Below, in pieces: positions 1,347 through 64,000 of a DNA stretch of 64,000 nucleotides (its first letter is position 1; every line of letters starts with the position of its first letter). The notes below the pieces were generated by a model. The model did no database searches and was not told the origin of the DNA. It saw nothing but the letters and a program-made list of their open reading frames with translations. Source of the DNA: an uncultured Planctomycetales bacterium. Its GTDB lineage: Bacteria > Omnitrophota > Gorgyraeia > Zapsychrales > JAHFFX01. The position numbers were made by a program, and so were the translations under genes. Location: positions 100,305-164,304 of the forward strand of contig CAYJRN010000001.1 of the NCBI GenBank assembly GCA_964372915.1, in the 5' to 3' direction.

Positions 1347-1705
1347 TTTTTATGAAGACATTCCATTGTATCCTCATTATATTTTTTCTGACCCTAGGCT
1401 TGAGTCTGGGGGGTTGCGCCAGCGACACGAAGGCGCGGAAAGCGGTCGATGTCATCAAAGAGAAACAAAAGAATTACGATGAGCTCATCAAGGCTTTAGC
1501 TGAGGGGGCCCTCCGTAAAGGGACTCCCGCCGTCACCATTAAGACACTCTACGGGAATCCTGATGACACTTTTGCTTCCGGCTCAATGACCGGCAGTACC
1601 GATATCTGGACTTACCATAAAATCCCTGATCCCAAAACCTCTGAGGAAGCGAAAGCCGTTCGACTTTATTTCAGCAACTCCAAATTAATCGATTGGACAT
1701 ATTGA
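1343..1705 (+). CDS. Putative lipoprotein (signal peptide with LGGC lipobox), function unknown
   Basis: The N-terminal hydrophobic leader ends in LSLGGCAS, a lipobox-like L-x-G-C. There is no recognisable catalytic motif. Confidence 0.45.
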   Translation: MIFMKTFHCILIIFFLTLGLSLGGCASDTKARKAVDVIKEKQKNYDELIKALAEGALRKGTPAVTIKTLYGNPDDTFASGSMTGSTDIWTYHKIPDPKTSEEAKAVRLYFSNSKLIDWTY

Positions 1706-1846
1706 TCCCATACAATAGAACGATGATGGCGGCGTCCCAGACTGCTCAAACAAGTGGGACGAGCCCATACAATAGAACGATGATGGCGGCGCCCCGCTAG
1801 TGAACGAAAGGGGGGCGAGCCCAATAGTAGAACGATAACGGCGGCG
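1706..1846 (+). repeat. About 56-bp tandem direct repeat (about 2.6 units), each unit ending in the first 7 nt of tRNA-Met; the last unit runs into the tRNA
   Basis: The units are (ga)gcccatacaatagaacgatgatggcggcg at 1706-1734 and 1761-1791, and gagcccaatagtagaacgataacggcggcg at 1817-1846. GGCGGCG is the 5' acceptor strand of the tRNA that starts at 1840. Confidence 0.8.
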
Positions 1847-1912
1847 TAGCTCAGCTGATAGAGCATTCGGTTCATACCCGACAGGTCAGTGGTTTAAATC
1901 CACTCGCCGCCA
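1840..1912 (+). tRNA. tRNA-Met (anticodon CAT), elongator-type (1:72 G-C pair)
   Basis: Cloverleaf: acceptor GGCGGCG/CGCCGCC, D-arm GCTC..GAGC, anticodon loop TTCATAC, T-arm AGTGG TTTAAAT CCACT. CCA is not encoded. I cannot distinguish Met from lysidine-Ile. Confidence 0.78.
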
Positions 1913-4077: not shown

Positions 4078-4186
4078 GACCATCGGCTTCACCCGGAGGC
4101 GGACAGGCAGGCGAGCGGGCCGTCAATAGACGGGCCGTGAATAAAAGCTTGAATAAACCGTCTGATACGCTATAATCTTTTAACTT

Positions 4187-4375
4187 ATTGACGATTGTTC
4201 CTCTAAAGAGGGTTCTTCCAAGAGAACAATCGTCGAGATACTGACCTTCCTTAATGTTATTGGAAAGAAAAAGGTCAGTATACGGTAATTTTTATTTGCA
4301 GGAAAAACTACAGGCCTCCGCATAATGTACTGTAATATTTTTCGATTATTCTCGATGAACGGAGGCCAGTACCGT
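4187..4375. repeat. Dispersed intergenic repeat, family R1, copy 1 (hairpin modules)
   Basis: ttgacgattgttcctctaaagagggttcttccaagagaacaatcgtcg plus gagatactgacc...ggtcagta are shared with 24296-24475. The aGGCCTCCGcataa...CGGAGGCCagtac hairpin is shared with 39225-39292. Confidence 0.65.
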
Positions 4376-10456: not shown

Positions 10457-10969
10457 ATGCTAGTATTTTTGTTATTGATCTTCGGAATGTTCTCACGTTT
10501 CATCGTTCATGTTCCCAACTTTACACCGGTCATTTCCATCGCCCTTTTAAGCGGCGCCTACCTTAATAAAAGATACGCCATAGTCGTTCCCGTGGCGTTG
10601 ATGATTTTGTCGGATTTGGTCATTGGACTGCATGAAACAATTCTTTTTACCTGGGGAAGTATGGCGCTCATCGCATTCATGGGCTTCTGCTTAAGAGGCA
10701 AAAAGAATTTTGTGAACATCGCGGGAATCAACCTCTGGTCAGCTATTCTTTTCTTTCTGGCAACGAATTTCGGGACGTGGTTGATGAGCGACTTGTACCC
10801 CAAAAACACTCAAGGCCTTATCGATTGCTTTATTCTGGCTGTCCCATTCTTTAGAACGACCCTTTGGAGTACTTTGATGTACAGCGCGCTTTTCTTTGGC
10901 GCTTATGAAATAATCGCCGCGCGGGTAAAATCATCCCGTTGGGCGACCGTTCTTTTAACCGCTTACTAA
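10457..10969 (+). CDS. Polytopic membrane protein, possibly ECF-transporter S-component-like; function unknown
   Basis: Five or six hydrophobic helices. The NFTPVISIALLSGAYL motif resembles substrate-capture S components. No strong family call. Confidence 0.35.
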   Translation: MLVFLLLIFGMFSRFIVHVPNFTPVISIALLSGAYLNKRYAIVVPVALMILSDLVIGLHETILFTWGSMALIAFMGFCLRGKKNFVNIAGINLWSAILFFLATNFGTWLMSDLYPKNTQGLIDCFILAVPFFRTTLWSTLMYSALFFGAYEIIAARVKSSRWATVLLTAY

Positions 10970-11011
10970 CTTTTTTCTTTCCAATGCGATTGGAAAGGCT
11001 AGTAAAATAAC

Positions 11012-11250
11012 CTATTCGGTGTCCCCCCGCCGTTTGCTTGTTTGCACTTTTTGAACAAATAGGGACAAGCAAACAAGCGGCGGGGGGATCAAAAGGGAAT
11101 CCTGTCCGCCCCAAAATTGGGGCGGGTTCAATCAGGAACGGTCCCGCCGCTGTAACTGAATTCTTTTCCTGTTTAAAGCCATTACTCTTTTAAGAGTGAG
11201 AAGGCAAGGGAAGAGAGTTTCATTCAGAAGTCAGAAGACCTGCCGAGTAG
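11012..11250 (+). ncRNA. Cobalamin (AdoCbl) riboswitch upstream of metE
   Basis: AAAAGGGAATCCTG..., CGGTCCCGCCGCTGTAACTG (B12-box-like GCCGCTG), GAGAAGGCAAGGGAAG and the 3' AGTCAGAAGACCTGCC motif match the Cbl riboswitch consensus from memory. An intrinsic terminator follows. Confidence 0.7.
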
Positions 11251-11313
11251 CTAGAGCGCATTCCTACTGCGAAGACAGTATCAATCGTGCGTATATTCTG
11301 GGATTTAAACGGG

Positions 11314-11350
11314 CCCAGTCCGCCATAATTTTGGCGGACTGGGTTTTTTT
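11314..11350 (+). terminator. Rho-independent terminator / riboswitch expression platform (CCCAGTCCGCC-loop-GGCGGACTGGG + T7)
   Basis: A perfect 11-bp stem followed by TTTTTTT, 23 nt before the metE ATG. Confidence 0.8.
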
Positions 11351-11372
11351 GTTAAAAAAGGATATTGAAATT

Positions 11373-13535
11373 ATGCAAACCTACGCTTACGGATTTCCTC
11401 GGTTAGGAGAAAACCGCGAATACAAAAAGGCTATTGAAAATTTCTGGAACGCTAAAGCTACCGAAACACAAACCAAAAATGAACTCGATCGCTTACAGGA
11501 GGAATTACTGAAGATTTATTCCCGGAGCGTGGACCAATTTCCGGTAGGGGAAATGACGGCTTATGATCCTATGCTGGATACGGCCATTATGCTGGGAATT
11601 CACCGGCCCAAGAACCTCAACGATTATTACAGTCTGTGTCGTGAGGAAAAGGCGCTGGAGATGACCAAATGGTTTAATACCAATTACCATTATTTGGTAA
11701 CTGACTTTGGGAGCATCAAGAAACCCAAATTGCGCTTAAATTGGAACAAATCGATGGAATATCAAAAACGGTTTCAAAAAGGGATTCCCTATCTTATCGG
11801 GCCGTTCACGTTTTTTAAACTCAGTAAAGGGCTTAGCCGAAACCGTTTTTTTGACTTGCTGGATACCGCTGCGGATATTTATGCCAAAATCATCGAGGAT
11901 TTGCCGGAAGTTCACGTCGACGAACCCGCTTTTGTCTTAGACCTCAACCAAGAAGAGATCAAGGCCATCCGCAAGGCTTACAAGAAAATGGACCCCACCA
12001 GCCGTAAAATCAATCTATTCACTTATTACGAGAGCGTTGACTGGATTAAAGACCTGCTTTCCTTACCGGTAAAATCCCTCGGACTTGATTTTATTCATGG
12101 CGCCGAACAATTATCAATGATCAAGAAGTACGGCTTCCCTAATGATAAAACGCTCATCGCCGGAATCGTGGACGGCCGCAGCATCTGGAAAACGAATTTA
12201 ACAAAAGTCATTACATTATTGCATGAACTTTCCCGACACACCTCATCCTTGATGATCAGCAACGCCGCCCCGCTTTACCATCTTCCCATCACACTTAAAG
12301 GTGAAAAGCTACCGACGGAACTTTTACAACGATTGAGTTTTGCGCGGGAACGCCTTGGAGAATTACAAACCATCGCCGAACTTTGGAAAAACGGCAAAAC
12401 ACCCGAAGCCTCTGTGTCTCTATCGCTGGGGGTCAACATGACCGTCCGCAAGAAAGTCGAATCACTTCAAACAAAAGACTTCATAAAAAAAGTTCCTTAT
12501 TCTAAACGGACCTCTTTACAAAATGGGTTACTGCGGCTTCCGCCGTTTCCGACGACCACCATCGGAAGTTTTCCGCAAACTTTCGAAATCCGCAAACTGC
12601 GCAGCGATTACCGCGGTGGTCAAATCAGCAAAGAGGTTTATGACGCGCACATCAAATCCAAGATCGCCGAACTCATCCGATTTCAGGAAGAATTGGGTCT
12701 CGATGTCCTGGTACACGGAGAATTCGAACGTACCGACATGGTGGAGTTCTTCGCCGAAAAACTGGAGGGGATTGCGACGACGCAGAAAGGGTGGATCATT
12801 TCCTATGGAACAAGGGCCTATCGACCGCCTATCATCTTTGGTGATGTTTCGCGTCCCCAGCCAATGACCATTGATGAGATTACTTATGCTCAGAGCCTGA
12901 CCAGTAAACCGGTGAAAGGCATGTTGACCGGCCCCGTGACCATCATTGCCTGGAGCTTTGTACGCGAAGACATTCCCGTCTCGCAAGTCGCCTATCAGAT
13001 TGGTCTGGCCCTCAAGGAAGAAATCCTGGACTATGAGAAAAAGGGGATTAAGATTGTCCAGATCGATGAGCCCGCTCTGAGAGAAAAAACTCCGATCAAA
13101 AGAAAAAAATGGAAAGAATATTTTGATTGGGCCATCAAGGCTTTCCGTTTGACGACCAACACGGACCCGACGACTCAAATCCACGCACACATGTGCTATT
13201 CGGAATTCGGCGATATCATCCGGGAAATTCGTCAGATGGATTTCGACGTTATTTCTATCGAAACTTCTCGTAGCCACGGCGATATCATCAAAGGGTTCGA
13301 AAAAATGAAATTTGACCGTCAGATCGGACTCGGGGTCTGGGATATCCACTCACCGGTTGTACCCAAAAAAAAGGAGATGGTCTCGATCGTGAGACGTGCT
13401 CTCAAAGTCATTCCCAAAGAGAATTTCTGGATCAATCCTGACTGTGGTCTTAAAACACGTAATTGGGAAGAAACCACAGCCTCGCTTAAAAACCTCGTGG
13501 CCTTAAGCCAAACCTTAAGAAAAAGGAGAAAGTAA
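11373..13535 (+). CDS. metE: Cobalamin-independent methionine synthase (5-methyltetrahydropteroyltriglutamate--homocysteine methyltransferase)
   Basis: ~720 aa with two MetE (beta/alpha)8 halves. The C-terminal IQIDEPAL...HMCYSEF zinc-site motifs are present. The ORF-track start at 11196 would run through the riboswitch and terminator. Confidence 0.9.
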   Translation: MQTYAYGFPRLGENREYKKAIENFWNAKATETQTKNELDRLQEELLKIYSRSVDQFPVGEMTAYDPMLDTAIMLGIHRPKNLNDYYSLCREEKALEMTKWFNTNYHYLVTDFGSIKKPKLRLNWNKSMEYQKRFQKGIPYLIGPFTFFKLSKGLSRNRFFDLLDTAADIYAKIIEDLPEVHVDEPAFVLDLNQEEIKAIRKAYKKMDPTSRKINLFTYYESVDWIKDLLSLPVKSLGLDFIHGAEQLSMIKKYGFPNDKTLIAGIVDGRSIWKTNLTKVITLLHELSRHTSSLMISNAAPLYHLPITLKGEKLPTELLQRLSFARERLGELQTIAELWKNGKTPEASVSLSLGVNMTVRKKVESLQTKDFIKKVPYSKRTSLQNGLLRLPPFPTTTIGSFPQTFEIRKLRSDYRGGQISKEVYDAHIKSKIAELIRFQEELGLDVLVHGEFERTDMVEFFAEKLEGIATTQKGWIISYGTRAYRPPIIFGDVSRPQPMTIDEITYAQSLTSKPVKGMLTGPVTIIAWSFVREDIPVSQVAYQIGLALKEEILDYEKKGIKIVQIDEPALREKTPIKRKKWKEYFDWAIKAFRLTTNTDPTTQIHAHMCYSEFGDIIREIRQMDFDVISIETSRSHGDIIKGFEKMKFDRQIGLGVWDIHSPVVPKKKEMVSIVRRALKVIPKENFWINPDCGLKTRNWEETTASLKNLVALSQTLRKRRK

Positions 13536-15532
13536 TGAAAAAAACATCTTGGCGTATAACACTTCTCGTTTTATTAATAATGCCTAAAATGGCATTCGCT
13601 CAAGAGGAACCGTTGACACCCATCGAATTGGAAAAAATTATTGTGACCGCCAGCCGCATGGCGCAGCATGATTATAAAGTCAGCGGCAACGTCAGCGTCA
13701 TTGATCGTTCTCAAATCGAATCCTCCACAGCCCAGAATATTCCCGACATCCTTAAAGACGCTCTGGGCGTTCACGTCGTCAACAACAGCAGCATAAAAAC
13801 GTCGGTCGTGGATATCCGCGGCTTCGGTGACACAGCCTCACGCAATGTGCTGGTCCTGGTCAATGACCGAATCCTTAATACCGTTGACATTTCCGGCCCG
13901 GATCTGCTGCAAATTCCTTTAAGTGCCGTGGAACGCATTGAAATTATCCGCGGGGCCGGCTCCGTTCTGTACGGGGACCGAGCGGTGGGAGGGGTCGTCA
14001 ACATCATCACCAAAAAAGGAAAGGGCAAATTGTCCGGCCGCCTGGGAACTCATATCGGCAGTTATGATGCCCGCGGAACCGACTTGGAAGTCTCCGGATC
14101 TCAAAAAGAATTCTCCTACTTTTTTTACTCCAAATACGACGATGCAAAGGGGTATCGGCAAAACAGCGACGTTTTAAGCAAAGACTTCAACACCCGCCTC
14201 GGATATGATTTGTCTGACAAGCTGTCTGCGGATATTGAATATTCCACCCACCGGGACGATTATGGACTCCCCGGCGGCTTAAGCGGGGCGAACCTCTCGG
14301 CGCTGGGGCCTAGGGCGTCCACGAATCTCAATGATTTTGCCAACAGCCGTGACCAGAACTTAAGATTGGGCTTCAATGTCACGCCTTGGCCGGCGGATCT
14401 TTATCTGGGACAACTGGCTTTGGATTTTTATGTTCGCGACCGCGATGTCTTTGATAGCTTCTCGGGGTTTGACACGACCCGTACCATCGATACCACCGGC
14501 ATTTCGGCGAAATACATTTTTGACCACACGGTTTTTAACAAAGAGGTGAACTTCGTTACGGGAATCGATTTTTACGATACCGAAAACCCGATCAAGGGAA
14601 GCGGCAGCAACACGGATGATTTGACCATTTCCAAAAAAGACATCGGCCTTTACGGTTTGGCCGAGGTTGAAACCCTGGAAAATCTTTTTGTCAACGCAGG
14701 AGGGAGATACTACAAGGCGGATTATGCCTTCAGCCAGCGCAACGGTGTCAACGTCGATGAGAAACAGCATCCGGATGTTTTTGTTTATACCGGAGGGTTA
14801 AAATACGAATATGCCCAGGGCTCCAACGCCCATATCAGCGTGCAGCGGACATTCCGGTTTCTGGCCACCGATGAGTGGTACAGTTCCTTTAGCGGGACGC
14901 TGGATACGAACCTCGATCAGCAAAAAGGGATTCAGTATGAGGCGGGAATTAAACACAATTTTAAAGACGCCATCTCTTTGAGCGTGACTCCCTACCTTAT
15001 TAACACCCATGACGAGATTTTCTTTGACCCGACGACTTTCACCAACAGCAATTACGATAAGACCCGGCGGGCGGGAGTGGAACTTGGGCAAGAGACGAAC
15101 TTGCTGAAATTCATCAACATTCCTCACCTTAACGAGCTGAAGCTTACGACCAACTACACTTATCAAAAACCGTATTTTAACGGCGGGCGTAGTAATAGAA
15201 AGTTGATTCCGCTGGTTCCCCGGCAACAAGTGAGCGGAGGGATCAGAACACAGTTCTTTAAAAATTATCACTTCGCCCTTACGGGCAATTACATCGGCTC
15301 TCAGTTTGCCATCAACGACGTCAACAACATCACCCCTAAGGTCGAGCCATACTTTACGCTGGATACCAAGCTCTCTTACAGAAAGGCAAATTATGAAATT
15401 TACGTAGGGATCAATAATATTAGTAATCAGAGGTATTCAACGACTGTCACCAAATCGGCCTCTTCCAATGCCAAAAGTTTTCTGCCGGCACCGGGAAGGA
15501 ATTTTGATGTGGGCGTCAATTGTAAATTCTAA
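13535..15532 (+). CDS. TonB-dependent outer-membrane receptor (candidate corrinoid transporter, BtuB-like by context)
   Basis: Signal peptide, TonB box IIVTASRM, plug then beta-barrel, C-terminal F. The start overlaps the metE stop (TAATG), so the gene lies under the Cbl riboswitch. Confidence 0.8.
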   Translation: MKKTSWRITLLVLLIMPKMAFAQEEPLTPIELEKIIVTASRMAQHDYKVSGNVSVIDRSQIESSTAQNIPDILKDALGVHVVNNSSIKTSVVDIRGFGDTASRNVLVLVNDRILNTVDISGPDLLQIPLSAVERIEIIRGAGSVLYGDRAVGGVVNIITKKGKGKLSGRLGTHIGSYDARGTDLEVSGSQKEFSYFFYSKYDDAKGYRQNSDVLSKDFNTRLGYDLSDKLSADIEYSTHRDDYGLPGGLSGANLSALGPRASTNLNDFANSRDQNLRLGFNVTPWPADLYLGQLALDFYVRDRDVFDSFSGFDTTRTIDTTGISAKYIFDHTVFNKEVNFVTGIDFYDTENPIKGSGSNTDDLTISKKDIGLYGLAEVETLENLFVNAGGRYYKADYAFSQRNGVNVDEKQHPDVFVYTGGLKYEYAQGSNAHISVQRTFRFLATDEWYSSFSGTLDTNLDQQKGIQYEAGIKHNFKDAISLSVTPYLINTHDEIFFDPTTFTNSNYDKTRRAGVELGQETNLLKFINIPHLNELKLTTNYTYQKPYFNGGRSNRKLIPLVPRQQVSGGIRTQFFKNYHFALTGNYIGSQFAINDVNNITPKVEPYFTLDTKLSYRKANYEIYVGINNISNQRYSTTVTKSASSNAKSFLPAPGRNFDVGVNCKF

Positions 15533-15546
15533 AAGTAAAGAGCAGA

Positions 15547-15587
15547 AAGGGCCGATTCCCCCGCCGACGGCGGGGGAATCGGCCCTT
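15547..15587. terminator. Bidirectional hairpin terminator between the convergent TonB-receptor and pfp genes
   Basis: AAGGGCCGATTCCCCCGCCG|ACGGCGGGGGAATCGGCCCTT, a 20-bp perfect palindrome. Confidence 0.75.
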
Positions 15588-15607
15588 TGAGGATATTTGA
15601 AAAAAAG

Positions 15608-16813
15608 CTATAAATGCCGCTCGACGGGCCCGTTGATCTTCTCAAAATGGAAGGACGTCTTGACCGGCGGGCGTCCGAAGCAAACGCCCAAAGTTTCGTA
15701 GAGTGACACGAGGTTCAAATCGACATAGCGTTGTTTGATGGCATCGGCCGTATTCATATAACGGATGGTATTACCGTTGACACCGGCGACGGTCACCCCG
15801 GTGATATTTTGAAGCAGCAATTGAACGGCCGCCGCGCCCGCTTCCTTGCCGAAGTTGACGTCGTAAGGGGAAGAGCGGCCGCAACGCACCAGATGCCCGG
15901 GCATGACCGCGCGAATCTCGGGAATCTCATTCATGCCCTTGACAAACATCATCGATCTCTTCATCATCTCGGCCGTAGAGGGGTCAGTTTTAAAACGTTT
16001 TGTTAATTCCTGGACCACATATTTCGCAGCGCCGGCGAGACGTTTATGTCCGAAAGAATCAACTCCAGCCGATTCATCCACGATCTCGCGCCCCGAGGCG
16101 TCTTTAAACCCTTCCGCCACGACAATCATGTAGGTGGCCCCGCGGATGTCGCTATTCATAATCTTTTCCCAATATCTGGCCTTGGCGTGGGCGTACAAAG
16201 CGTCAAAGTCGACCGGGACCTCCGGAATGAGCACGGCGTCGGCATCCGCCGCAATGCCTCCCCGAAAAGCGGTGTGCCCGGCATAACGACCGAACACCTC
16301 CATCGCAACGATCCGGCGATGCGTCACAGCGGTTGTTTTTAAATCTTCGATGAAATTTGCGATCCGCGCGATCGCGGAGTCGCCCCCGACCGAATACGTT
16401 TGCAGGTCCAAGTCCATGGTTTTGGGGGCATGAACGCACTTAAACCCTTGTTGACTCAAATCCACCATGACACTTGCGGAATCATCGCCACCGCTAATGA
16501 CTAACCCGTCAATCTTAAATTTTTCTATACCCTTTTTGATCCGTTGATATTTTTTTTCATCTTCGATTTTCTTGACCTTAACCCGGGAATGACCCGCCTC
16601 AGAGCCAGCCAGATTGGCATCAATTTGGTCGATCCTGTGGGCTGTCAACTCGACCAGTTGATCCATATCCACAAGATTGTAAAGCCCGGCATAGCCATGC
16701 GGAATCATAAAACAGGAAAGACCCTGCGAACGCGCCATGAGGGCGGCACCCTTGATGACACCGTTTAAGCCTCCACAATCTCCGCCGCTGGTAAGGATTC
16801 CGATACGCTTCAT
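15608..16813 (-). CDS. pfp: Pyrophosphate-dependent 6-phosphofructokinase
   Basis: PFK fold, GILTSGGDCGGLN. GGDDS (Asp replacing the ATP-PFK Gly) and PKTMD (Lys) are the residues that distinguish PPi- from ATP-dependent enzymes. Confidence 0.8.
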   Translation of the reverse strand: MKRIGILTSGGDCGGLNGVIKGAALMARSQGLSCFMIPHGYAGLYNLVDMDQLVELTAHRIDQIDANLAGSEAGHSRVKVKKIEDEKKYQRIKKGIEKFKIDGLVISGGDDSASVMVDLSQQGFKCVHAPKTMDLDLQTYSVGGDSAIARIANFIEDLKTTAVTHRRIVAMEVFGRYAGHTAFRGGIAADADAVLIPEVPVDFDALYAHAKARYWEKIMNSDIRGATYMIVVAEGFKDASGREIVDESAGVDSFGHKRLAGAAKYVVQELTKRFKTDPSTAEMMKRSMMFVKGMNEIPEIRAVMPGHLVRCGRSSPYDVNFGKEAGAAAVQLLLQNITGVTVAGVNGNTIRYMNTADAIKQRYVDLNLVSLYETLGVCFGRPPVKTSFHFEKINGPVERHL

Positions 16814-16825
16814 GGCAATACTCCT

Positions 16826-16960
16826 TTGATATATTAAATTATTAACCTTTTCTTCCTTAAAGCCGTAAATTTTTTTCCAGTCTCAAGGAGAGAAAAGGTA
16901 ATATTGACTTCCATATACGGCGCTAATAGCGGAAAGGTCAATAGTGAGAATATCGTATCA
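16826..16960. repeat. Dispersed leader repeat, family R2, copy A (immediately 5' of the pfp RBS)
   Basis: ttattaaccttttcttccttaaa...gagagaaaaggtaatattgacttccatatacggcgctaatagcggaaaggtcaata. Near-identical copies lie at 43528-43650, 50095-50170 (partial) and 52328-52510. Confidence 0.7.
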
Positions 16961-17009
16961 AACAATTACCATTTTGTGAAGAAATTAGTGATTTTCATTA
17001 AAATCTTCC

Positions 17010-17348: not shown

Positions 17349-17358
17349 TTTTTTGTTT

Positions 17359-17392
17359 GCGGGCGTAGTTCAATGGCAGAACTCCAGCCTTC
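17359..17392 (+). pseudogene. 5' fragment (34 nt) of tRNA-Gly(TCC), identical to the complete copy downstream; not foldable as a tRNA
   Basis: GCGGGCGTAGTTCAATGGCAGAACTCCAGCCTTC equals the first 34 nt of the tRNA at 17473. The sequence then diverges with no anticodon or T-arm pairing. Confidence 0.6.
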
Positions 17393-17456: not shown

Positions 17457-17472
17457 CAAGCTGGTTTTTATT

Positions 17473-17546
17473 GCGGGCGTAGTTCAATGGCAGAACTCCA
17501 GCCTTCCAAGCTGGTAACGTGAGTTCGATTCTCATCGCCCGCTCCA
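17473..17546 (+). tRNA. tRNA-Gly (anticodon TCC), CCA encoded
   Basis: GCGGGCGTAGTTCAATGGCAGAACTCCAGCCTTCCAAGCTGG...GAGTTCGATTCTCATCGCCCGCTCCA. Confidence 0.9.
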
Positions 17547-23090: not shown

Positions 23091-24289
23091 AATACGTCGT
23101 GATCGTCCCTGACGGGATGGCGGATGAACCCGTGAAAATCCTAAAAAATAAAACTCCTCTGGAAGAGGCGGATACGCCGAACATGGATTATTTGGCCCAA
23201 AATGGATTGACGGGACTCGTTAAAACCATTCCCGATGGCATGGACCCTGGTTCGGAGATCGGGAATTTGGCGCTGTTAGGCTATAACCCTCAACAATGTT
23301 TCTTTGGCCGTGCTCCGCTGGAGGCGGCCAGCCAAGACATCATGCTGGCCGAAGATGAAGTCGCGTTTCGCTGTAATCTTGTGACCGTTCAGGATGACAT
23401 TATGATGGATTACAGCGCCGGTCACATCACCACCAAGGAGGCCGCGGTTTTTATCGATGAACTTAATAAAAAACTGACGCTTCCCAACATTAAATTTTAC
23501 CTTGGGAAAAGTTATAGGCATCTCCTGATCCTTAAGACAAAATTTGCCAAGGACTTTTTTGAGATCCACTCCACGCCTCCGCACAATATCCAGGGACAAA
23601 ATATCAAGAAATATGTGCCGCGCGGTAACCGGTCGGAACTCTTGGGTGATCTTATGGAAAAATCCCGATCGATTTTTGCAGGACATCCCATTAATCAGGT
23701 CAGGATTGACCTTAAAGAAAATCCGGCCACCATGATTTGGCTCTGGGGGCAGGGGATTAAACCTAAGCTTCCTCAATTCACTGAGAAGTTCGGCGTTAAA
23801 GGCGGGATCATTTCCGCCGTTGACCTGGTGACGGGTATAGGGAAACTCACCGGACTGAAAGTCATTAACGTCCCCGGCATCACCGGATATTATGACACCA
23901 ATTATTTGGGCAAGGCAGAATATGCGCTTAAGTTTTTACAAAAAAATGATTTCGTTTACATCCATATCGAAGCGCCGGACGAGGCAGGGCACAATGGGGA
24001 TGTGCGCATGAAAATCGCTTCCATCGAACATATTGACAAAGACATCGTAGGCACTATACTAAAATATTTCAAAGACAAAGAGAATGTCCGGATCCTCGTT
24101 GCCTCGGATCATCCCACTCCGGTGGAAAAACGCGCGCATACCCGTGAACCCGTCGGGTTTGTGATGTTCGGCAAAGGCATTACGCCCGATGGCGCGGCCA
24201 AGTTCAGCGAGTCCCTCGCAAAAGAAAAGGGACTCAAATTCCAAAGCGGCGAAGAACTGATGCGGCATTTTATGCGTAAGCCCTATTGA
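23087..24289 (+). CDS. Cofactor-independent phosphoglycerate-mutase-like protein (ApgM family; member of the clade proposed to act as homoserine kinase in thr operons)
   Basis: [15 protein letters not shown] metalloenzyme N-terminus, 400 aa, ApgM-type. It sits between thrC and lysC, and no thrB is seen in the operon. Confidence 0.7.
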   Translation: MKYVVIVPDGMADEPVKILKNKTPLEEADTPNMDYLAQNGLTGLVKTIPDGMDPGSEIGNLALLGYNPQQCFFGRAPLEAASQDIMLAEDEVAFRCNLVTVQDDIMMDYSAGHITTKEAAVFIDELNKKLTLPNIKFYLGKSYRHLLILKTKFAKDFFEIHSTPPHNIQGQNIKKYVPRGNRSELLGDLMEKSRSIFAGHPINQVRIDLKENPATMIWLWGQGIKPKLPQFTEKFGVKGGIISAVDLVTGIGKLTGLKVINVPGITGYYDTNYLGKAEYALKFLQKNDFVYIHIEAPDEAGHNGDVRMKIASIEHIDKDIVGTILKYFKDKENVRILVASDHPTPVEKRAHTREPVGFVMFGKGITPDGAAKFSESLAKEKGLKFQSGEELMRHFMRKPY

Positions 24290-24295
24290 CGATTG

Positions 24296-24475
24296 TTCCT
24301 CTAAACAGGGTTTTCTTAAGAGAACAATCGTCGCCCCTGTTTTCCTTAAAATATATTCAGAGGAAACTGGGGCAGTCCTCGCTTCTTCTAAAAAATTTTC
24401 AAAGGAAAGCGAGGGCGAGATACTGACTACCACAAATGCTATTGGTAAAGAAAAGGTCAGTAAACACTATTTTCA
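24296..24475. repeat. Dispersed intergenic repeat, family R1, copy 2 (5' leader of lysC)
   Basis: ttgacgattgttcctctaaacagggttttcttaagagaacaatcgtcg ... gagatactgac...ggtcagta, with an ~80-bp insertion relative to copy 1. Confidence 0.65.
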
Positions 24476-24497: not shown

Positions 24498-25721
24498 ATG
24501 GAAAAGCAAATCATCGTCATGAAGTTCGGCGGGTCTTCGGTGGCCAACCCCGAAAGAATCAAGGTCGTGGCCGAACGCGTCATCAGTTATAAAAAACCCC
24601 AGTATGATTTGGTTGTCGTGGTATCGGCTCTAGGCGACACAACCGATGAGTTGATCGATCTGGCCGCACAAGTCACTTCCGATCCCCCAAAAAGGGAAAT
24701 GGATATGCTGATGGCAACCGGCGAACAGATTGCTTCCGCGCTCTTGGCCATGGCCATTAAAGATCAAGGACATGATGCCGTGTCCTTGACCGGTGGACAA
24801 GTGGGAATCAAAACGGACAAAGCCCATACGCGCGCGCGCATTCAAAGGATTGAAACCAAACGCATCAAAAAAGCGATCAGCAAAAATCAAATTGTCATTG
24901 TTGCGGGATTTCAAGGGGTCACTCGCGACGATGAAATCACGACCTTAGGACGAGGCGGTTCGGACTTAACCGCGGTCGCATTGGCTAAAACCTTGAGCGC
25001 TAAGGTCTGCGAAATCTACACGGACGTTGAGGGCATTTATACTACCGATCCGCGCATCGAAAAGTCAGCCCGAAAGATCAAAGCCATCACCTTCGATGAA
25101 ATGCTTGAAATGTCGGCTCTGGGCGCGCAAGTGATGCAATCCAGATCCATTGAAGTCGCCAGAAAATATAACATTCCGCTGCATGTCAGATCCAGTTTTT
25201 CCAAGGAGGAAGGAACCATGATCGTCAAAGAAACCGATAAGATGGAAGAGGTCGTTGTTCGCGGCATTACCTGCAATAAAAACGAGGCCAAGCTCACGAT
25301 TTGCAGCGTTCCCGATAAACCCGGGGTCGCGGCAAAAATCTTTACAGAAATCTCCAAGGCCGGCATCAACGTCGACACGATTGTTCAAAACGTCAGCCAC
25401 ACGCGCCTCACGGATATCTCCTTCACCGTCCCCAAGGGATCGTTACATAACGCCATCGCCAGCACCCAGGCGATTGCCAAAAAAATTGGGGCGGGGGAAG
25501 TTCTGCACGACAAGAACATCGCGCGCGTTTCGATCGTTGGCGCCGGGATGCGTTCGCATCATGGGATCGCCGCCAAGATGTTCCGGACACTGGCTGAAAA
25601 TAAAATCAACATTGAAATGATCACGACGTCGGAAATCAGTATTTCGTGCCTCATTAATCAAGCCTTGGCCGACCAAGCGGTCAAGACCTTACACAAGACG
25701 TTTAATCTGGATCAATACTAA
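24498..25721 (+). CDS. lysC: Aspartate kinase (two C-terminal ACT domains)
   Basis: KFGGSSVAN amino-acid-kinase N-terminus, 407 aa, ACT repeats at the C-terminus. Confidence 0.9.
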   Translation: MEKQIIVMKFGGSSVANPERIKVVAERVISYKKPQYDLVVVVSALGDTTDELIDLAAQVTSDPPKREMDMLMATGEQIASALLAMAIKDQGHDAVSLTGGQVGIKTDKAHTRARIQRIETKRIKKAISKNQIVIVAGFQGVTRDDEITTLGRGGSDLTAVALAKTLSAKVCEIYTDVEGIYTTDPRIEKSARKIKAITFDEMLEMSALGAQVMQSRSIEVARKYNIPLHVRSSFSKEEGTMIVKETDKMEEVVVRGITCNKNEAKLTICSVPDKPGVAAKIFTEISKAGINVDTIVQNVSHTRLTDISFTVPKGSLHNAIASTQAIAKKIGAGEVLHDKNIARVSIVGAGMRSHHGIAAKMFRTLAENKINIEMITTSEISISCLINQALADQAVKTLHKTFNLDQY

Positions 25722-25788
25722 CTTTTTCCTTTAAGGAAAAAGTAGTACTGCCTTCCTCTAAAAAACGGTTAAGGAAAAGGCTAGTAAA

Positions 25789-39224: not shown

Positions 39225-39292
39225 TACAGGCCTCCGCATAAGTAACGCCAATATTTTCCTGTATTATTATCAAAGAGCGGAGGCCAGTACTG
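39225..39292. repeat. Family R1 hairpin module (aGGCCTCCGcataa...CGGAGGCCagtac), third copy
   Basis: The same arms and flanks as 4307-4372, in the same + orientation, although the neighbouring gene here is on the - strand. Confidence 0.55.
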
Positions 39293-39371
39293 GCTACCAC
39301 TACTTTTTTTAGGAAAGTCAGTAAATATCTTCAAAAAAAAGTCAACCCTTCGACAAGTTCAATAGGACCCT

Positions 39372-41608: not shown

Positions 41609-41634
41609 CTTTAGACCTATAAAATACTGCAAAA

Positions 41635-41673
41635 AAACACCATTTCTAAGAGTTAGAAAGGGTGTTTTCGTTT
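41635..41673 (+). terminator. Rho-independent terminator (AAACACC-loop-GGTGTTT + T-rich)
   Basis: A hairpin then TTTCGTTT, 27 nt after the stop at 41608. Confidence 0.6.
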
Positions 41674-42341: not shown

Positions 42342-42359
42342 ACCTCTCCTTAAAGACTA

Positions 42360-42413
42360 AAACAACCCCTATGTTATTATGAACATATGCTCATAATAAC
42401 ATAGGGGTTGTTT
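42360..42413. repeat. 23-bp perfect inverted repeat with 8-nt loop (AAACAACCCCTATGTTATTATGA acatatgc TCATAATAACATAGGGGTTGTTT)
   Basis: Read directly from the sequence. It lies between the GAF-gene stop (42436) and the DUF134 RBS. Confidence 0.85.
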
Positions 42414-42435
42414 AAATCAAATCAATTTTATCAAA

Positions 42436-43512
42436 TTAAGTGGTGGTGGAAGTTTTTTGCTGCAAATTGAGCATAGCGACTGCGGTCAATTTGGAAAGAT
42501 GCGAAAGAATTTCGAGGCTTTCCTGATCCGATATGATATCTTCCGTTTTTTTGGTGTGAAGATTCATGATGCCGAAAACATTGTTTTGGGAAAAAAGCGG
42601 CATCACAAGAGCCCTTTTAATATCCGGGCGTTTTAGAAGATGCTTGATCTTATCATCCCCGTCTGTCCCGCTAATGACAAAAAGTTTTTTCTGCTTAAAG
42701 GCAACCCCCGCCACCCCCTCCCCGAATTTCAACCTGGTGTTTCGAGCCCGCGACTTATCAATGCCCCTGGAAACCTTAATGACGAGGTCTCCTTTCTCAT
42801 TGTCTAACACCATAATCGATCCGCATTCGGCCTTGGTCATACTCAGGGCCACATCCAAAAGGGTCACCAAAAGTTCATCAAAATAAATAGAAGAATAAAT
42901 GTCCTGAGCTGTCTCATTAGCCTCCTGAGACAAGACCTCCTTATTAAGGCACATTTTTTCCAACCCCTGCCTTTGCAGGTTAAGTTCAATGCCATATTTC
43001 ACTATCTCTGATAAAAGATCCAAGATCGACTTCAAGGTAATGCTGGATAAGGCTCTCACCTCATTGAGGGTGTCTAATATTTCGGTAACCGGCAGATTCA
43101 GAGTTTTAGCTATTTTTTGATATTCTTGCTGATCCAAACGTTCATTCAGGATGATGGGGCCTAGAATGAAATAAGCAAAGACACTTTCCTCCGTGTCTTT
43201 GGCTGTGATAGGAATGGCAAAGCTATGCAGATTAAAAGTGAACTGATGCTCAAGGTAAGACCCGTATTTTCGAAACTTAGAAATGAGAATTTCCGGTTCA
43301 TTGAATAGATTAGCGGTCACGGCCGGCTTATTGAAAAATTCGCTGCCATAGCGTCCCTTAACCGGAGGCAGAAGGATACGGCCCTCAAAGTCGACAATAA
43401 AAATGTTGATTTTGAGAACCTCAATGAAATGGGTCAAAATTCCAGACCATTTTTCGCGGTTCCCCATGTTCAAAATGTTCAAAACCAACTTTTTAAGTTC
43501 TTCTGGCTTCAT
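42436..43512 (-). CDS. Sensor protein with C-terminal GAF domain and N-terminal PocR-like region; no output domain
   Basis: The C-terminal ~150 aa (LLDVALSMTKAECGSIMVLDNEKGDLVIKVSRG...GEGVAGVAFKQKKLFVISG) looks like a GAF domain. The N-terminus is uncharacterised, and a PocR-like assignment is tentative. Confidence 0.55.
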   Translation of the reverse strand: MKPEELKKLVLNILNMGNREKWSGILTHFIEVLKINIFIVDFEGRILLPPVKGRYGSEFFNKPAVTANLFNEPEILISKFRKYGSYLEHQFTFNLHSFAIPITAKDTEESVFAYFILGPIILNERLDQQEYQKIAKTLNLPVTEILDTLNEVRALSSITLKSILDLLSEIVKYGIELNLQRQGLEKMCLNKEVLSQEANETAQDIYSSIYFDELLVTLLDVALSMTKAECGSIMVLDNEKGDLVIKVSRGIDKSRARNTRLKFGEGVAGVAFKQKKLFVISGTDGDDKIKHLLKRPDIKRALVMPLFSQNNVFGIMNLHTKKTEDIISDQESLEILSHLSKLTAVAMLNLQQKTSTTT

Positions 43513-43527
43513 TATGAATAAATAATA

Positions 43528-43650
43528 AATGAACTATTAACCTTTTCTTCCTTAAAACCATAAGCTTTTCTCCAACTTTGAGGTTTGAGGAGAGAAAAAG
43601 TAATATTGACTTCCATATACGGCGTTAATAGTAGAAAGGTCAATAATATC
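43528..43650. repeat. Family R2 leader repeat, copy B (5' of the GAF gene)
   Basis: ctattaaccttttcttccttaaaaccataagcttttctcc...gagagaaaaagtaatattgacttccatatacggcgttaatagtagaaaggtcaata. Confidence 0.7.
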
Positions 43651-50081: not shown

Positions 50082-50094
50082 TGACGCTCTTTTT

Positions 50095-50170
50095 GATTAT
50101 TAACCTTTTCTTCCTTAAAACCGTAAGCTCTTCTCCAGCTTTAGAGAGAGAAATTGAAATAATGGTGTCT
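50095..50170. repeat. Family R2 leader repeat, copy C (partial; 5' of the His-rich membrane protein gene)
   Basis: attattaaccttttcttccttaaaaccgtaagctcttctccag, then divergent. Confidence 0.6.
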
Positions 50171-50241
50171 ATTCTATTAAAAATCCCTTCCTCTTGCAAT
50201 GGAAACCTTGAGACGCCCATTGCCGCAAATTCGTGCAAAAT

Positions 50242-52327: not shown

Positions 52328-52510
52328 ATTTATTAACCTTTTCTTCCTTAAAACCGTAAGCTTTTCTCCAGCCGCCAGAAGAGAAAAGGTAATACATGGC
52401 TTCCCTAGAAACATATTGTGGAAGCCAGTACTGCCTTCCATAAATTCCTTTTTTGAGAGAAGGCATGTATTGACTTCCACATACGGCGCTAATAGTGGAG
52501 AGATCAATAA
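52328..52510. repeat. Family R2 leader repeat, copy D, with a nested R1-type hairpin insertion (GGCTTCC...GGAAGCCagtac)
   Basis: atttattaaccttttcttccttaaaaccgtaagcttttctccag ... (insertion) ... gtattgacttccacatacggcgctaatagtggagagatcaata. Confidence 0.65.
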
Positions 52511-59800: not shown

Positions 59801-59870
59801 CCTCAGCGGTAAGCGTATAGCGGTTAGCGGATAGTACAACAAAAAGAATTAATTCACTGACCGCTATTCG
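59801..59870. promoter_or_regulatory. Imperfect 19-bp inverted repeat (AGCGGTAAGCGTATAGCGG ... CCGCTATTCGCTGTCCGCT) upstream of fadA
   Basis: 16 of 19 positions complementary with a 32-nt spacer, in the fadA promoter region. Confidence 0.35.
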
Positions 59871-59884
59871 CTGTCCGCTGTACG

Positions 59885-61894: not shown

Positions 61895-61920
61895 CGTGTC
61901 CCCTCCTTTAAATAAGCACA

Positions 61921-61960
61921 TAAGTTACGTCGTCCGCCTTTGGCGGACGACGTAACTTAT
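61921..61960. terminator. 18-bp perfect inverted repeat hairpin (TAAGTTACGTCGTCCGCC tttg GGCGGACGACGTAACTTA)
   Basis: It lies between the stop of the 62009-62353 gene and the start of the 61469 gene, both on the - strand. Confidence 0.7.
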
Positions 61961-62406: not shown

Positions 62407-64000
62407 TTAAGAAGCAGTTTTCTTCATTTCAAAGTTCCATTTCCAAATAGCGTAGATGACCGGATACACTAACAATTCAAGGATGAATGACGTGAAAAGC
62501 CCGCCGACCATCGGAGCCGCGATCCTTTTCATTAAGTCCGCCCCCGCTCCCACCGACCACATAATAGGCAGAAGCCCGATGAACGCCGCCATCACCGTCA
62601 TCATTTTGGGGCGCACGCGCTTGACCGCGCCATAGACGATGGCCTCTTCCAAATCCTTTTCCGTCTTCATCTTTCCGGCTCTTTTAGCTTCTTCATAAGC
62701 CAGGTCCAAAAACAGCAACATAAAAACACCCGTTTCGGCATCCAGTCCCATTAAGGCGATCATCCCCACCCAAACGGCAATGGAGACATTATACCCCAAT
62801 ATCCACAAAAGCCAAACAGCGCCGATCAAAGAAAAAGGAACCGCCAGAAGAACAATCAAGGTCTTGACCATCGACCGTGTATTGAAATATAACAGCATAC
62901 AAATGATAAAAAGAGTCAGAGGAAGAACAATTTTTAAGCGTTCTTTGACACGGAGCATATTTTCGTATTGGCCGCTCCAGATCAACCCATAACCTTGGGG
63001 AAGTTTGAGTTCTTTGGTGACCTTGGCCTTGGCTTCCTCGACATAACTGCCGATATCACGACCCGTCATGTCCACAAAAACATAGCCGGCCAGGAGTCCG
63101 TTTTCGTTACGGATCATCGACGGCCCCGAACGCACCACAATGTCGGCAATCTGGGCAAGAGGAATCTGCTGGCCTGAAGGTGTTGGAACCAAAACTCTTT
63201 TCAAATGTTCAACGTCGTCACGCAAATCGCGCGGATAGCGAACATTGATGGGGTACCGTTCCCTCCCTTCGATCGTTGTGGAAATATTCTCTCCGCCGAT
63301 TGCCGATAGTATGACCATCTGCGCGTCCTCAACTGAAAGGCCATAACGCGCGAGCTCTTCGCGTTTAAGGTCAAAGTCTAAGAAATATCCTCCCACCGCG
63401 CGCTCGGCAAAAACACTTCTAGTTCCCGGAATATCCTTGATGATCATTTCGACGCGAGCGCCAATCTCTTCGATCTTTTTGAGATCATCTCCAAGGATCT
63501 TAATGCCAACGGGAGTGCGTACGCCCGTTGATAACATATCGATCCGGTTCTTGATGGGCATGGTCCAGGCATTGGTGGTCCCTGGAATCTTGAGCGCCTT
63601 GTCCATCTCATCAATCAATTCTTCATGCGAGATATTGTCCGGCCAAAACCGACGGAACAACCCCTGTGCCCCATTCGGCAGTCCAGAGTAAAAGCGTTTT
63701 ACCTTGCGCCACTCTTCTTTGGGTTTGAGCATCACCACTGTTTCCATCATGGAAAATGGGGCCGGGTCCGTAGAACTTTCAATCCGGCCGGCCTTACCAA
63801 AAACTTTTTCAACTTCCGGAAAACTTTTGAGGATTTGGTCCTGTGTTTGTAAAAGCTTTTGAGCCTCGGTCACGGAAATGCCCGGCAAGGTGATCGGCAT
63901 GTAAAGAATATCCCCTTCCCATAACGGCGGCATGAATTCCGATCCTAATTTCAGATAAACGGGAATCGTCGTGAGAACCAGAATCAACGCCGTAATGATG
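62407..64000 (-). CDS. RND efflux permease (AcrB/CusA/CzcA superfamily), C-terminal ~530 aa; N-terminus beyond window
   Basis: The ORF is open to the window end. Periplasmic subdomains and TM7-12 are typical of RND permeases. Confidence 0.8.
   Translation of the reverse strand, partial: IITALILVLTTIPVYLKLGSEFMPPLWEGDILYMPITLPGISVTEAQKLLQTQDQILKSFPEVEKVFGKAGRIESSTDPAPFSMMETVVMLKPKEEWRKVKRFYSGLPNGAQGLFRRFWPDNISHEELIDEMDKALKIPGTTNAWTMPIKNRIDMLSTGVRTPVGIKILGDDLKKIEEIGARVEMIIKDIPGTRSVFAERAVGGYFLDFDLKREELARYGLSVEDAQMVILSAIGGENISTTIEGRERYPINVRYPRDLRDDVEHLKRVLVPTPSGQQIPLAQIADIVVRSGPSMIRNENGLLAGYVFVDMTGRDIGSYVEEAKAKVTKELKLPQGYGLIWSGQYENMLRVKERLKIVLPLTLFIICMLLYFNTRSMVKTLIVLLAVPFSLIGAVWLLWILGYNVSIAVWVGMIALMGLDAETGVFMLLFLDLAYEEAKRAGKMKTEKDLEEAIVYGAVKRVRPKMMTVMAAFIGLLPIMWSVGAGADLMKRIAAPMVGGLFTSFILELLVYPVIYAIWKWNFEMKKTAS

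Follow-up and report, generated by a model that had tools for sequence, protein, structure and literature searches.

A 64 kb stretch of contig CAYJRN010000001.1 (assembly GCA_964372915.1; hereafter the window), whose best protein matches are metagenome-assembled genomes of Candidatus Omnitrophota, carries four related copies of a short module, R2, each on the minus strand with a start codon immediately downstream. Does this module bring the genes behind it under common control, or is it mobile DNA that has settled between them? A reading made from the sequence alone had proposed either a mobile, promoter-carrying miniature inverted-repeat transposable element (MITE) or a cis-regulatory leader defining a small regulon. 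Our analysis indicates that R2 is probably a mobile repeat of MITE-like, non-autonomous type that belongs to a single lineage of Candidatus Omnitrophota and is composed of two hairpin units, A and B. It is shorter than 200 bp, non-coding and A+T-rich, has terminal inverted repeats and TA termini, occurs in several dispersed copies, and shows filled and empty sites. The composite, as well as single units and pairs of units, is inserted into the spacers between genes, and R2 displays neither gene-specific conservation nor a shared function among its neighbours. Copy counts given for R2 and for its sister arrays refer to these 64 kb.

Architecture of the R2 repeat

Copies were detected by a repeat search of the window, in which a four-member family (D1) and a three-member family (D2) jointly make up the module, by BLASTN between copies (E = 1e-12 to 1e-28), and by nhmmer profiles of its two halves, modules A and B (E = 1e-13 to 1e-22). 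These searches bear out the four copies, their places and their strand. The description of the copies as near-identical was too strong, since identity between them ranges from 80 to 98% by segment. Copy 1 matches copy 2 at 82% over 114 nt by BLASTN, and identities of 93–98% are confined to the 3′ ~45 nt of copies 2–4. With all limits given including the flanking TA, the general layout of the repeat is TA, TTGACCTTTCC...GGAAGTCAA, TA, TTACCTTTTCTCTCCTT...AAGGAAGAAAAGGTTAA, TA, that is, unit A followed by unit B, and the copies measure 64, 104, 111, and 179 nt.

Copy 1 (16840–16943, minus strand) is a full composite with exactly these arms in its unit A (16902–16943) and unit B (16840–16903); tRNA-Thr (+) and pfp (−) diverge from the spacer that holds it, and 26 nt separate it from the pfp ATG. 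Copy 2 (43535–43645, minus strand) is likewise a full composite, with a unit B loop longer by 7 nt, and ends 22 nt before the ATG of a PocR/GAF gene; its first bases read TAT-TGA and provide an extra Tyr codon and the stop (43640–43642) of the upstream epimerase gene. Copy 3 (50098–50161, minus strand) consists of unit B alone (TA, TTTCAATTTCTC...GGTTAA, TA) with a weakened 5′ arm, and is found 16 nt before the ATG of a 227-aa protein that heads the heme genes. Copy 4 (52331–52509, minus strand) starts 4 nt past the stop codon of an acyl-CoA dehydrogenase gene and ends 4 nt before the ATG of a patatin gene. Its unit A (52468–52509) and unit B (52331–52394) are separated by a nested insert of 73 nt (52395–52467, minus strand), built of two mutually inverted hairpins (CATGCCTTCTCTC...GGAAGGCAG, TA, CTGGCTTCC...GGGAAGCCATG). 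Copies 2, 3, and 4 were recovered base for base in independent Logan assemblies of three sequencing runs (contigs L025/L026, L018, and L023/L024, respectively) and are therefore not assembly artefacts. The De Bruijn contigs from these three runs end inside conserved R2 segments, as a multi-copy repeat would cause.

The genes downstream had been named correctly from the sequence: Pfam returns phosphofructokinase (PFK), PocR/GAF, a cyclic nucleotide (cNMP)-binding patatin, and heme genes, and assigns no family to the 227-aa protein ahead of the latter. The position of the copies relative to these genes is less uniform than a leader that is always just 5′ of its gene, because the upstream stop lies inside copy 2 and 4 nt before copy 4, and these two copies belong to the 3′ end of the gene before them no less than to the 5′ end of the one that follows. 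Likewise, an end 10–15 nt before the ribosome-binding site fits copy 1 but not the others: copy 2 shows no visible Shine-Dalgarno (SD) sequence, copy 3 is followed directly by a weak AAAGAG, and copy 4 leaves only its 4 nt before the start codon. Around copy 3, the spacer at 50082–50241 offers just 160 nt between the patatin and the membrane-protein/heme genes and holds a promoter-like site along with the repeat; in two relatives a Fur-family gene is found between the same genes (L021 4244–4881 and L022 12086–12611).

The outer ends of the composite, TATTGACCTTT and AAAGGTTAATA, are complementary at 10 of 11 positions, and R2 thus has terminal inverted repeats. The module folds into two hairpins, with RNA z-scores of −4.5 for copy 1, −2.35 for copy 2 and a weak −1.4 for copy 3, while copy 4, folded as DNA, reaches −4.4; the centroid fold of copy 2 pairs the element end to end. 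A hairpin with a CU-rich and a GA-rich arm does exist as had been noticed, although in copy 1 it comprises 16–17 pairs with bulges rather than 14 bp. A role as a terminator was considered and rejected, as the units lack a U-tract and real T-run terminators are present elsewhere in the window.

R2 has no conserved coding capacity, as the open reading frames (ORFs) running through the copies vary in frame and sequence. Small ORFs are called inside copies at 43512–43620 (−) of the window and on Logan contigs L025 and L026 (2–118) and L024 (2262–2387). One of 34 codons in copy 2 (MEVNITFSLL...) has a terminal TAA that overlaps the PocR/GAF ATG (TAATG), and is probably spurious, its frame not being kept in other copies. 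A conserved small peptide of this sequence was rejected as a candidate, since the frame is lost after loop indels and no SD precedes it.

Insertion at TA and a wider family of TA-bounded units

For comparison we used ~190 kb of DNA around orthologous genes of relatives (loci L014, L015, L016, L019, L021, and L022 included), the closest of which share 76% protein identity for PFK and 70% for patatin. The spacer between the acyl-CoA dehydrogenase and patatin genes spans 8 nt in L022, 6 nt in L019, and 10 nt in L021, against 187 nt in the window, where copy 4 fills it. Deletion of copy 4 together with one TA leaves a spacer of 10 nt, CCTT-TA-AATC. R2 was not found in the pfp leaders of L014, L015, and L016, and nhmmer searches of the ~190 kb with modules A and B yielded nothing beyond the four copies of the window and Logan contigs from the same organism. 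When an invariant 20-mer of the module (TTAAGGAAGAAAAGGTTAAT) was compared with public genome and metagenome contig collections, 13 matches were obtained, which we regard as chance because each shares merely 20–29 nt and they come from unrelated taxa. In copies 1 and 2, units A and B meet at a TA; alignment places the insert of copy 4 at precisely this point, with a TA on each side, and copy 4 differs from those copies by the 73 nt plus a second TA. The G+C content of the elements is 31–40%, compared with 48% for the window. Empty sites in three relatives, TA flanks, terminal inverted repeats, low G+C, nested insertion, and restriction to one lineage together uphold the mobile-element half of the sequence-only reading.

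R2 is not alone. With five further arrays of like units it forms a set of nine arrays in the window, all intergenic and bounded by TA at 18 of 18 termini. The units share the arm consensus TA-YTGRC-CTTTYC, with pyrimidines prevailing on the 5′ side and purines on the 3′ side; the consensus TAYTGRCYTTYC occurs 12 times against 4.6 expected, a number reached in none of 100 shuffles, and all four of its exact matches fall inside arrays. An energy-window hairpin scan did not discriminate the units, coding DNA folding about equally well, and a loose stem finder was noisy yet exposed the arrays at 10964 and 25716.

All five sister arrays are read on the plus strand. The array at 4186–4371 is made up of TA,TTGACGATTG...; TA,CTGACCTTCC...GGTCAG,TA; and TA,CAGGCCTCCGC...GGCCAG,TA (repeat families D6, D8, and D10), and is placed between a promoter-like site (TTGAAT-16-TATAAT, 4149–4176) and the start of ftsH (4387). 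The array at 24284–24462, 35 nt before the aspartate kinase ATG, has end units as in 4186–4280 plus two extra internal hairpins, and gives TAT-TGA to a phosphoglycerate mutase (PGM)-like gene. As in R2, the modular plan is thus one of shared end units, with two internal hairpins present in only one of the two arrays. A single unit at 10964–11004 (TA, CTAACTTTTTTCTTTCC...GGAAAGGCTAG, TA) gives TAC-TAA, a Tyr codon and a stop, to a DUF6580 gene and lies upstream of a cobalamin riboswitch. The two-unit array at 25716–25786 occupies the entire spacer between aspartate kinase and a LeuA-like gene, provides the gene before it with TAC-TAA and stops 2 nt short of the ATG that follows. That at 39225–39323 (TA,CAGGCCTCCGC...GGCCAG,TA,CTGGCTACCAC...GTCAG,TA) separates a MobA-like gene (−) from the divergent ORF 39372 (+). 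The genes that follow the nine arrays, namely ftsH, a TonB-dependent receptor behind the B12 riboswitch, pfp, aspartate kinase, a LeuA-like gene, a hypothetical gene, PocR/GAF, the heme genes, and patatin, have no common theme.

In the relative L014, like units are found at non-orthologous places, namely the tRNA-Tyr–tRNA-Thr spacer and a point 34 nt beyond the DUF6580 stop; one of their arms shares an 18-nt stretch with copy 2, another an 11-nt stretch with the copy 4 insert. These units behave like a dispersed mobile family with conserved ends and free loops. The riboswitch downstream of the 10964 unit (11061–11261, +; RF00174, 74.6 bits) stands ahead of TonB-dependent receptor genes at 11196–13535 and 13535–15532, and just upstream of it are the hairpin unit and a GC-rich 24-bp stem (11021–11089).

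Stop codons also point to the target. At copy 2 and at the arrays at 10964, 24284, and 25716, the upstream ORF ends in TAY-TRA, with the last four bases taken from the element, and when the element is removed with one TA an in-frame stop is restored at all four (TAG at copy 2 and TAA at each of the others). These ends and restored stops fit insertion into the TA of the original stop codon. The L014 orthologues have no terminal Tyr, the DUF6580 protein ending ..LLMS* there and ..LLTAY* in the window, and the PGM-like protein ..FMQR* and ..FMRKPY*, respectively; among 120 epimerase homologues a terminal Tyr occurs in one, which is the window's own protein. The upstream stop codon is a frequent target, the Y-TRA start of the element adding one Tyr codon and restoring the stop. 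Counting the patatin spacer, removal of an element and one TA restores a short spacer or a stop codon at five sites in total.

Several observations weigh against this account. TA is self-complementary, such that a duplicated target TA and a TA belonging to the inverted repeat are inseparable except through the empty-site and stop-codon reconstructions. No transposase domain was detected in the 39 scanned ORFs of the window, nor in the compared loci, and a search of both for a parent insertion sequence (IS), as inverted arm pairs 0.3–3 kb apart, gave nothing credible. The count of R2 is limited to four copies, all from the 64-kb window. Not every unit obeys the TA rule, given that the 24284 array has its two extra hairpins inserted at G|A. 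Finally, all six copies of the two multi-copy families (four of R2 and two of the sister family) are in sense orientation, which has a chance probability of ~1/16 and is not expected from random insertion.

Leader, promoter and palindrome alternatives

A cis-regulatory RNA leader, be it a riboswitch, an attenuator, or an SD-sequestering switch, would put pfp, heme synthesis, the patatin lipase, and the GAF regulator under one signal, and would explain why the four R2 copies all stand in the mRNA sense directly 5′ of a start codon. As in SD-sequestering leaders and riboswitches, a strand rich in C and U pairs, shortly before the start codon, with a purine-rich, SD-like one, and the CU arm includes CUCCUU, which could in principle pair with AAGGAG, the SD of pfp. 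The fold of minimum energy, however, has the CU arm bound to its own 17-bp GA partner with the real SD free, and no alternative fold is favoured; R2 also need not supply an SD, because patatin orthologues lack one too. The sense strand folds somewhat better than the antisense in four of four R2 copies (−32.7 against −30.4, −30.9 against −26.3, −15.6 against −14.2, and −60.1 against −52.4 kcal/mol for copies 1–4), an advantage that is not seen across the wider family, where antisense is the better-folding strand for three arrays (4186, 10964, and 25716); since the bias is inconsistent over the nine arrays, we claim no RNA-level selection for that family. The regulon proposed from the sequence fails on comparative grounds as well. 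R2 is absent from the orthologous pfp and patatin leaders of relatives, half of the element is missing in copy 3, and a 73-nt insert is tolerated in copy 4. The copies are too alike, with differences that are non-compensatory (the 5′ arm drifts against an invariant 3′ arm), and their likeness reflects recent descent rather than structural constraint. Rfam, searched over the whole window at gathering thresholds, reports only the cobalamin riboswitch and tRNAs, a permissive search of 16780–17000 gives chance-level matches only (E > 0.9), and the sister arrays stand before unrelated genes. We thus find a leader that unites these genes highly improbable, and a true regulatory leader is essentially excluded.

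It is also unlikely that R2 is a MITE with a working outward promoter in unit A that creates new transcription starts for the downstream gene. Each copy had been said to carry TTGACC-N17/18-GTATAT/TATATG; the motif is present in copies 1 and 2, where the −35 hexamer matches at five of six positions, but copy 4 has only a degraded form of it (TTGATC...TATGTG) and copy 3 none. In L014, an A-like unit shows TTGACC-N16-TAATAA, and Correia elements have been reported with putative promoters (PMC2229807). The L014 unit, however, is antisense to both adjoining genes, and TTGAC is part of a hairpin arm common to many units that have no −10 at all. The −10 candidates of unit A are off consensus (position 2 is not A in GTATAT, nor is position 6 T in TATATG), and a sigma-70 scan of all four regions left the internal site uncalled, whereas promoter-like sites elsewhere in this genome and in relatives have a near-canonical TATAAT. 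Sites better than the internal one, all of them consensus matches only, end 8–10 nt upstream of copy 1, copy 3, and the 4186 array. That of copy 1 (16952–16980, −; TTCACA-17-(TG)TACGAT) ends 8 nt before the first TA, in a region where the scan called two promoter-like sites against 1.3 expected by chance; its position implies that unit A would sit at the extreme 5′ end of the pfp mRNA. That of copy 3 (50171–50199, −; TTGCAA-17-TAGAAT) ends 9 nt before the TA and stands ahead of unit B in nearly the register of unit A, which this copy lacks, a point that could be counted in favour of a promoter. A different kind of mobility, with the units moved on single-stranded DNA by a REP-associated tyrosine transposase (RAYT, IS200/IS605-like) instead of a TA-duplicating DDE enzyme, would make them repetitive extragenic palindromes (REPs) or their REPIN and bacterial interspersed mosaic element (BIME) assemblies. 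The units are indeed imperfect palindromes of 40–70 nt that, as in BIMEs, form head-to-tail mosaic arrays; the insert of copy 4 resembles a REPIN in being a doublet of two inverted hairpins, and a short conserved motif, TAYTG, abuts each stem. REPs are defined by a GT(A/G)G head beside a GC-rich palindrome (PMC2817692), yet the units begin with TA-YTGRC, have no such head and are AT-rich, R2 sites show an apparent target duplication, and the scanned ORFs of the window include no Y1 transposase gene. We take a REP/RAYT mechanism to be quite improbable and less likely than a TA-duplicating one.

Mobility, related repeat classes and meaning

Bacterial MITEs are defined as elements of <200 bp that are A+T-rich, have terminal inverted repeats with a terminal 5′-TA-3′ and target-site duplications, and form co-transcribed stem-loops (PMC2229807). 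Like ERIC/IRU (RU-1), Correia/NEMIS, and RUP, R2 is ~100–180 nt long, non-coding, and A+T-rich, with inverted repeats ending in TA and insertion at TA with apparent duplication; like them, it is strictly intergenic, forms end-to-end stem-loops, occurs as filled and empty sites between relatives, and is probably co-transcribed (PMC2229807). It differs from these families in having no sequence similarity to them, in its independently occurring hairpin units of 40–65 nt that are stacked into arrays, in arms that are strongly pyrimidine-rich (5′) and purine-rich (3′), and in its host, an uncultured member of the Omnitrophota. The combination of fixed end modules with a variable interior recalls the BOX elements of pneumococci and other streptococci (boxA-boxB(n)-boxC), R2 having the form A-(0 or 2 hairpins)-B and the sister family D8-(0 or 2)-D6, and as in BOX the internal modules fold alone and leave the end modules undisturbed (PMC3049150). 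Sequence and phylum are different, however, and the internal units of R2 are unrelated hairpins with TA junctions between units, not tandem boxB. With REP, BIME, and REPIN elements R2 shares short extragenic palindromes clustered in intergenic mosaic arrays, and is set apart by the missing GT(A/G)G head, AT-rich units, TA flanks with apparent duplication, and the lack of a RAYT gene among the scanned window ORFs (PMC2817692).

In the mechanism that we favour for a MITE-like R2, a transposase encoded elsewhere in the genome would recognize the conserved arms, insert the element at a TA, and duplicate that TA. The best guess for the enzyme is a TA-targeting IS630/Tc1-like transposase, in line with RUP, which is thought to be mobilized by IS630-Spn1 (PMC2229807). 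Because every unit is itself flanked by TA, new units could land on old TA junctions and so produce tandem hairpin arrays. Insertions would persist only where genes stay unbroken, for example at the TA of TAA or TAG stops, which would be tolerated since the Y-TRA start of the element re-creates the stop after one Tyr. Once inserted, the element would be co-transcribed with its neighbours and place stable stem-loops in 5′ untranslated regions or between cistrons, where, by analogy with ERIC, Correia, and BOX, they probably alter mRNA stability or processing and in places may occlude a purine-rich, SD-like tract.

We give little credence to a bolder idea, that the TA-flanked CU/GA units may be more than selfish DNA and may now serve this Omnitrophota clade as domesticated, portable RNA modules. 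The sense orientation of the six copies would fit it, as would the −10 of a promoter-like site ending 8–10 nt before the first hairpin in three arrays outside operons, and the 5′ stop codon and 3′ purine-rich, SD-like tract built into each unit. With such a −10, the stem-loop would come to lie at the extreme 5′ end of the mRNA, a place where it is known to shield transcripts from 5′-end-dependent decay. If the idea were true, insertions would rewire the mRNA stability and translation of housekeeping genes phylum-wide.

Other repeats and features were seen in the window and in the compared loci. The 5′ part of a tRNA-Gly (17351–17392) is duplicated 114 nt upstream of the intact gene (17465–17546), both on the plus strand; unrelated sequence of ~64 nt interrupts the anticodon stem (CCAGCCTTC ... 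CAAGCTGG) of the partial copy. Repeated tRNA-Gly fragments are also found in L014 (8600–9100). At 1704–1850 (+), a 35-nt segment (CCCATACAATAGAACGATGATGGCGGCG...) that ends in the first bases of tRNA-Met (1840–1913) is present in three tandem copies ~56 nt apart, each followed by a small hairpin. Long intergenic hairpins unrelated to R2 were recorded in the window (59804–59880), in L015 (9890–9990), in L016 (1590–1660), and in L019 (3464–3738, 6427–6642, 17144–17287, and 19797–19926). Their arms consist of short periodic motifs (CAGCGG/TAAGCG, CACCAAA, CAGCTA, GGGACGT, and AGGTTAT), of which each Omnitrophota lineage seemingly has its own set; in L019 a segment of ~75 nt is also repeated, inverted, in two spacers. 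Perfect or near-perfect palindromes at 15546–15588, 41634–41668, 42355–42418, and 61920–61960, with arms of 16–32 nt and loops of 0–3 nt, resemble bidirectional terminators, at least two of them lying between convergent genes, and are distinct from the TA-flanked units. Near the end of the window, an AcrB-family ORF of 526 aa (62407–63987, −) covers only 631–1019 of a 1021-position Pfam profile and looks truncated or split.

These results remove a false lead, in that no regulon joins pyrophosphate-dependent PFK, heme synthesis, the lipase, and the GAF protein. They document a MITE-like repeat family in the Omnitrophota, of which no earlier description was found in the literature searched. In practice, such repeats break short-read assemblies of the lineage and lead gene callers to report spurious small ORFs within them. 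R2 adds a member from a little-studied phylum to a known class, the small mobile hairpin repeats with TA flanks, and its most instructive features are the targeting of stop codons and the modular growth of arrays. It gives a clear picture of life in a compact genome, in which an element lands in the TA of a stop codon, repairs the gene with a stop of its own, and stacks by way of the new TA targets that it brings.

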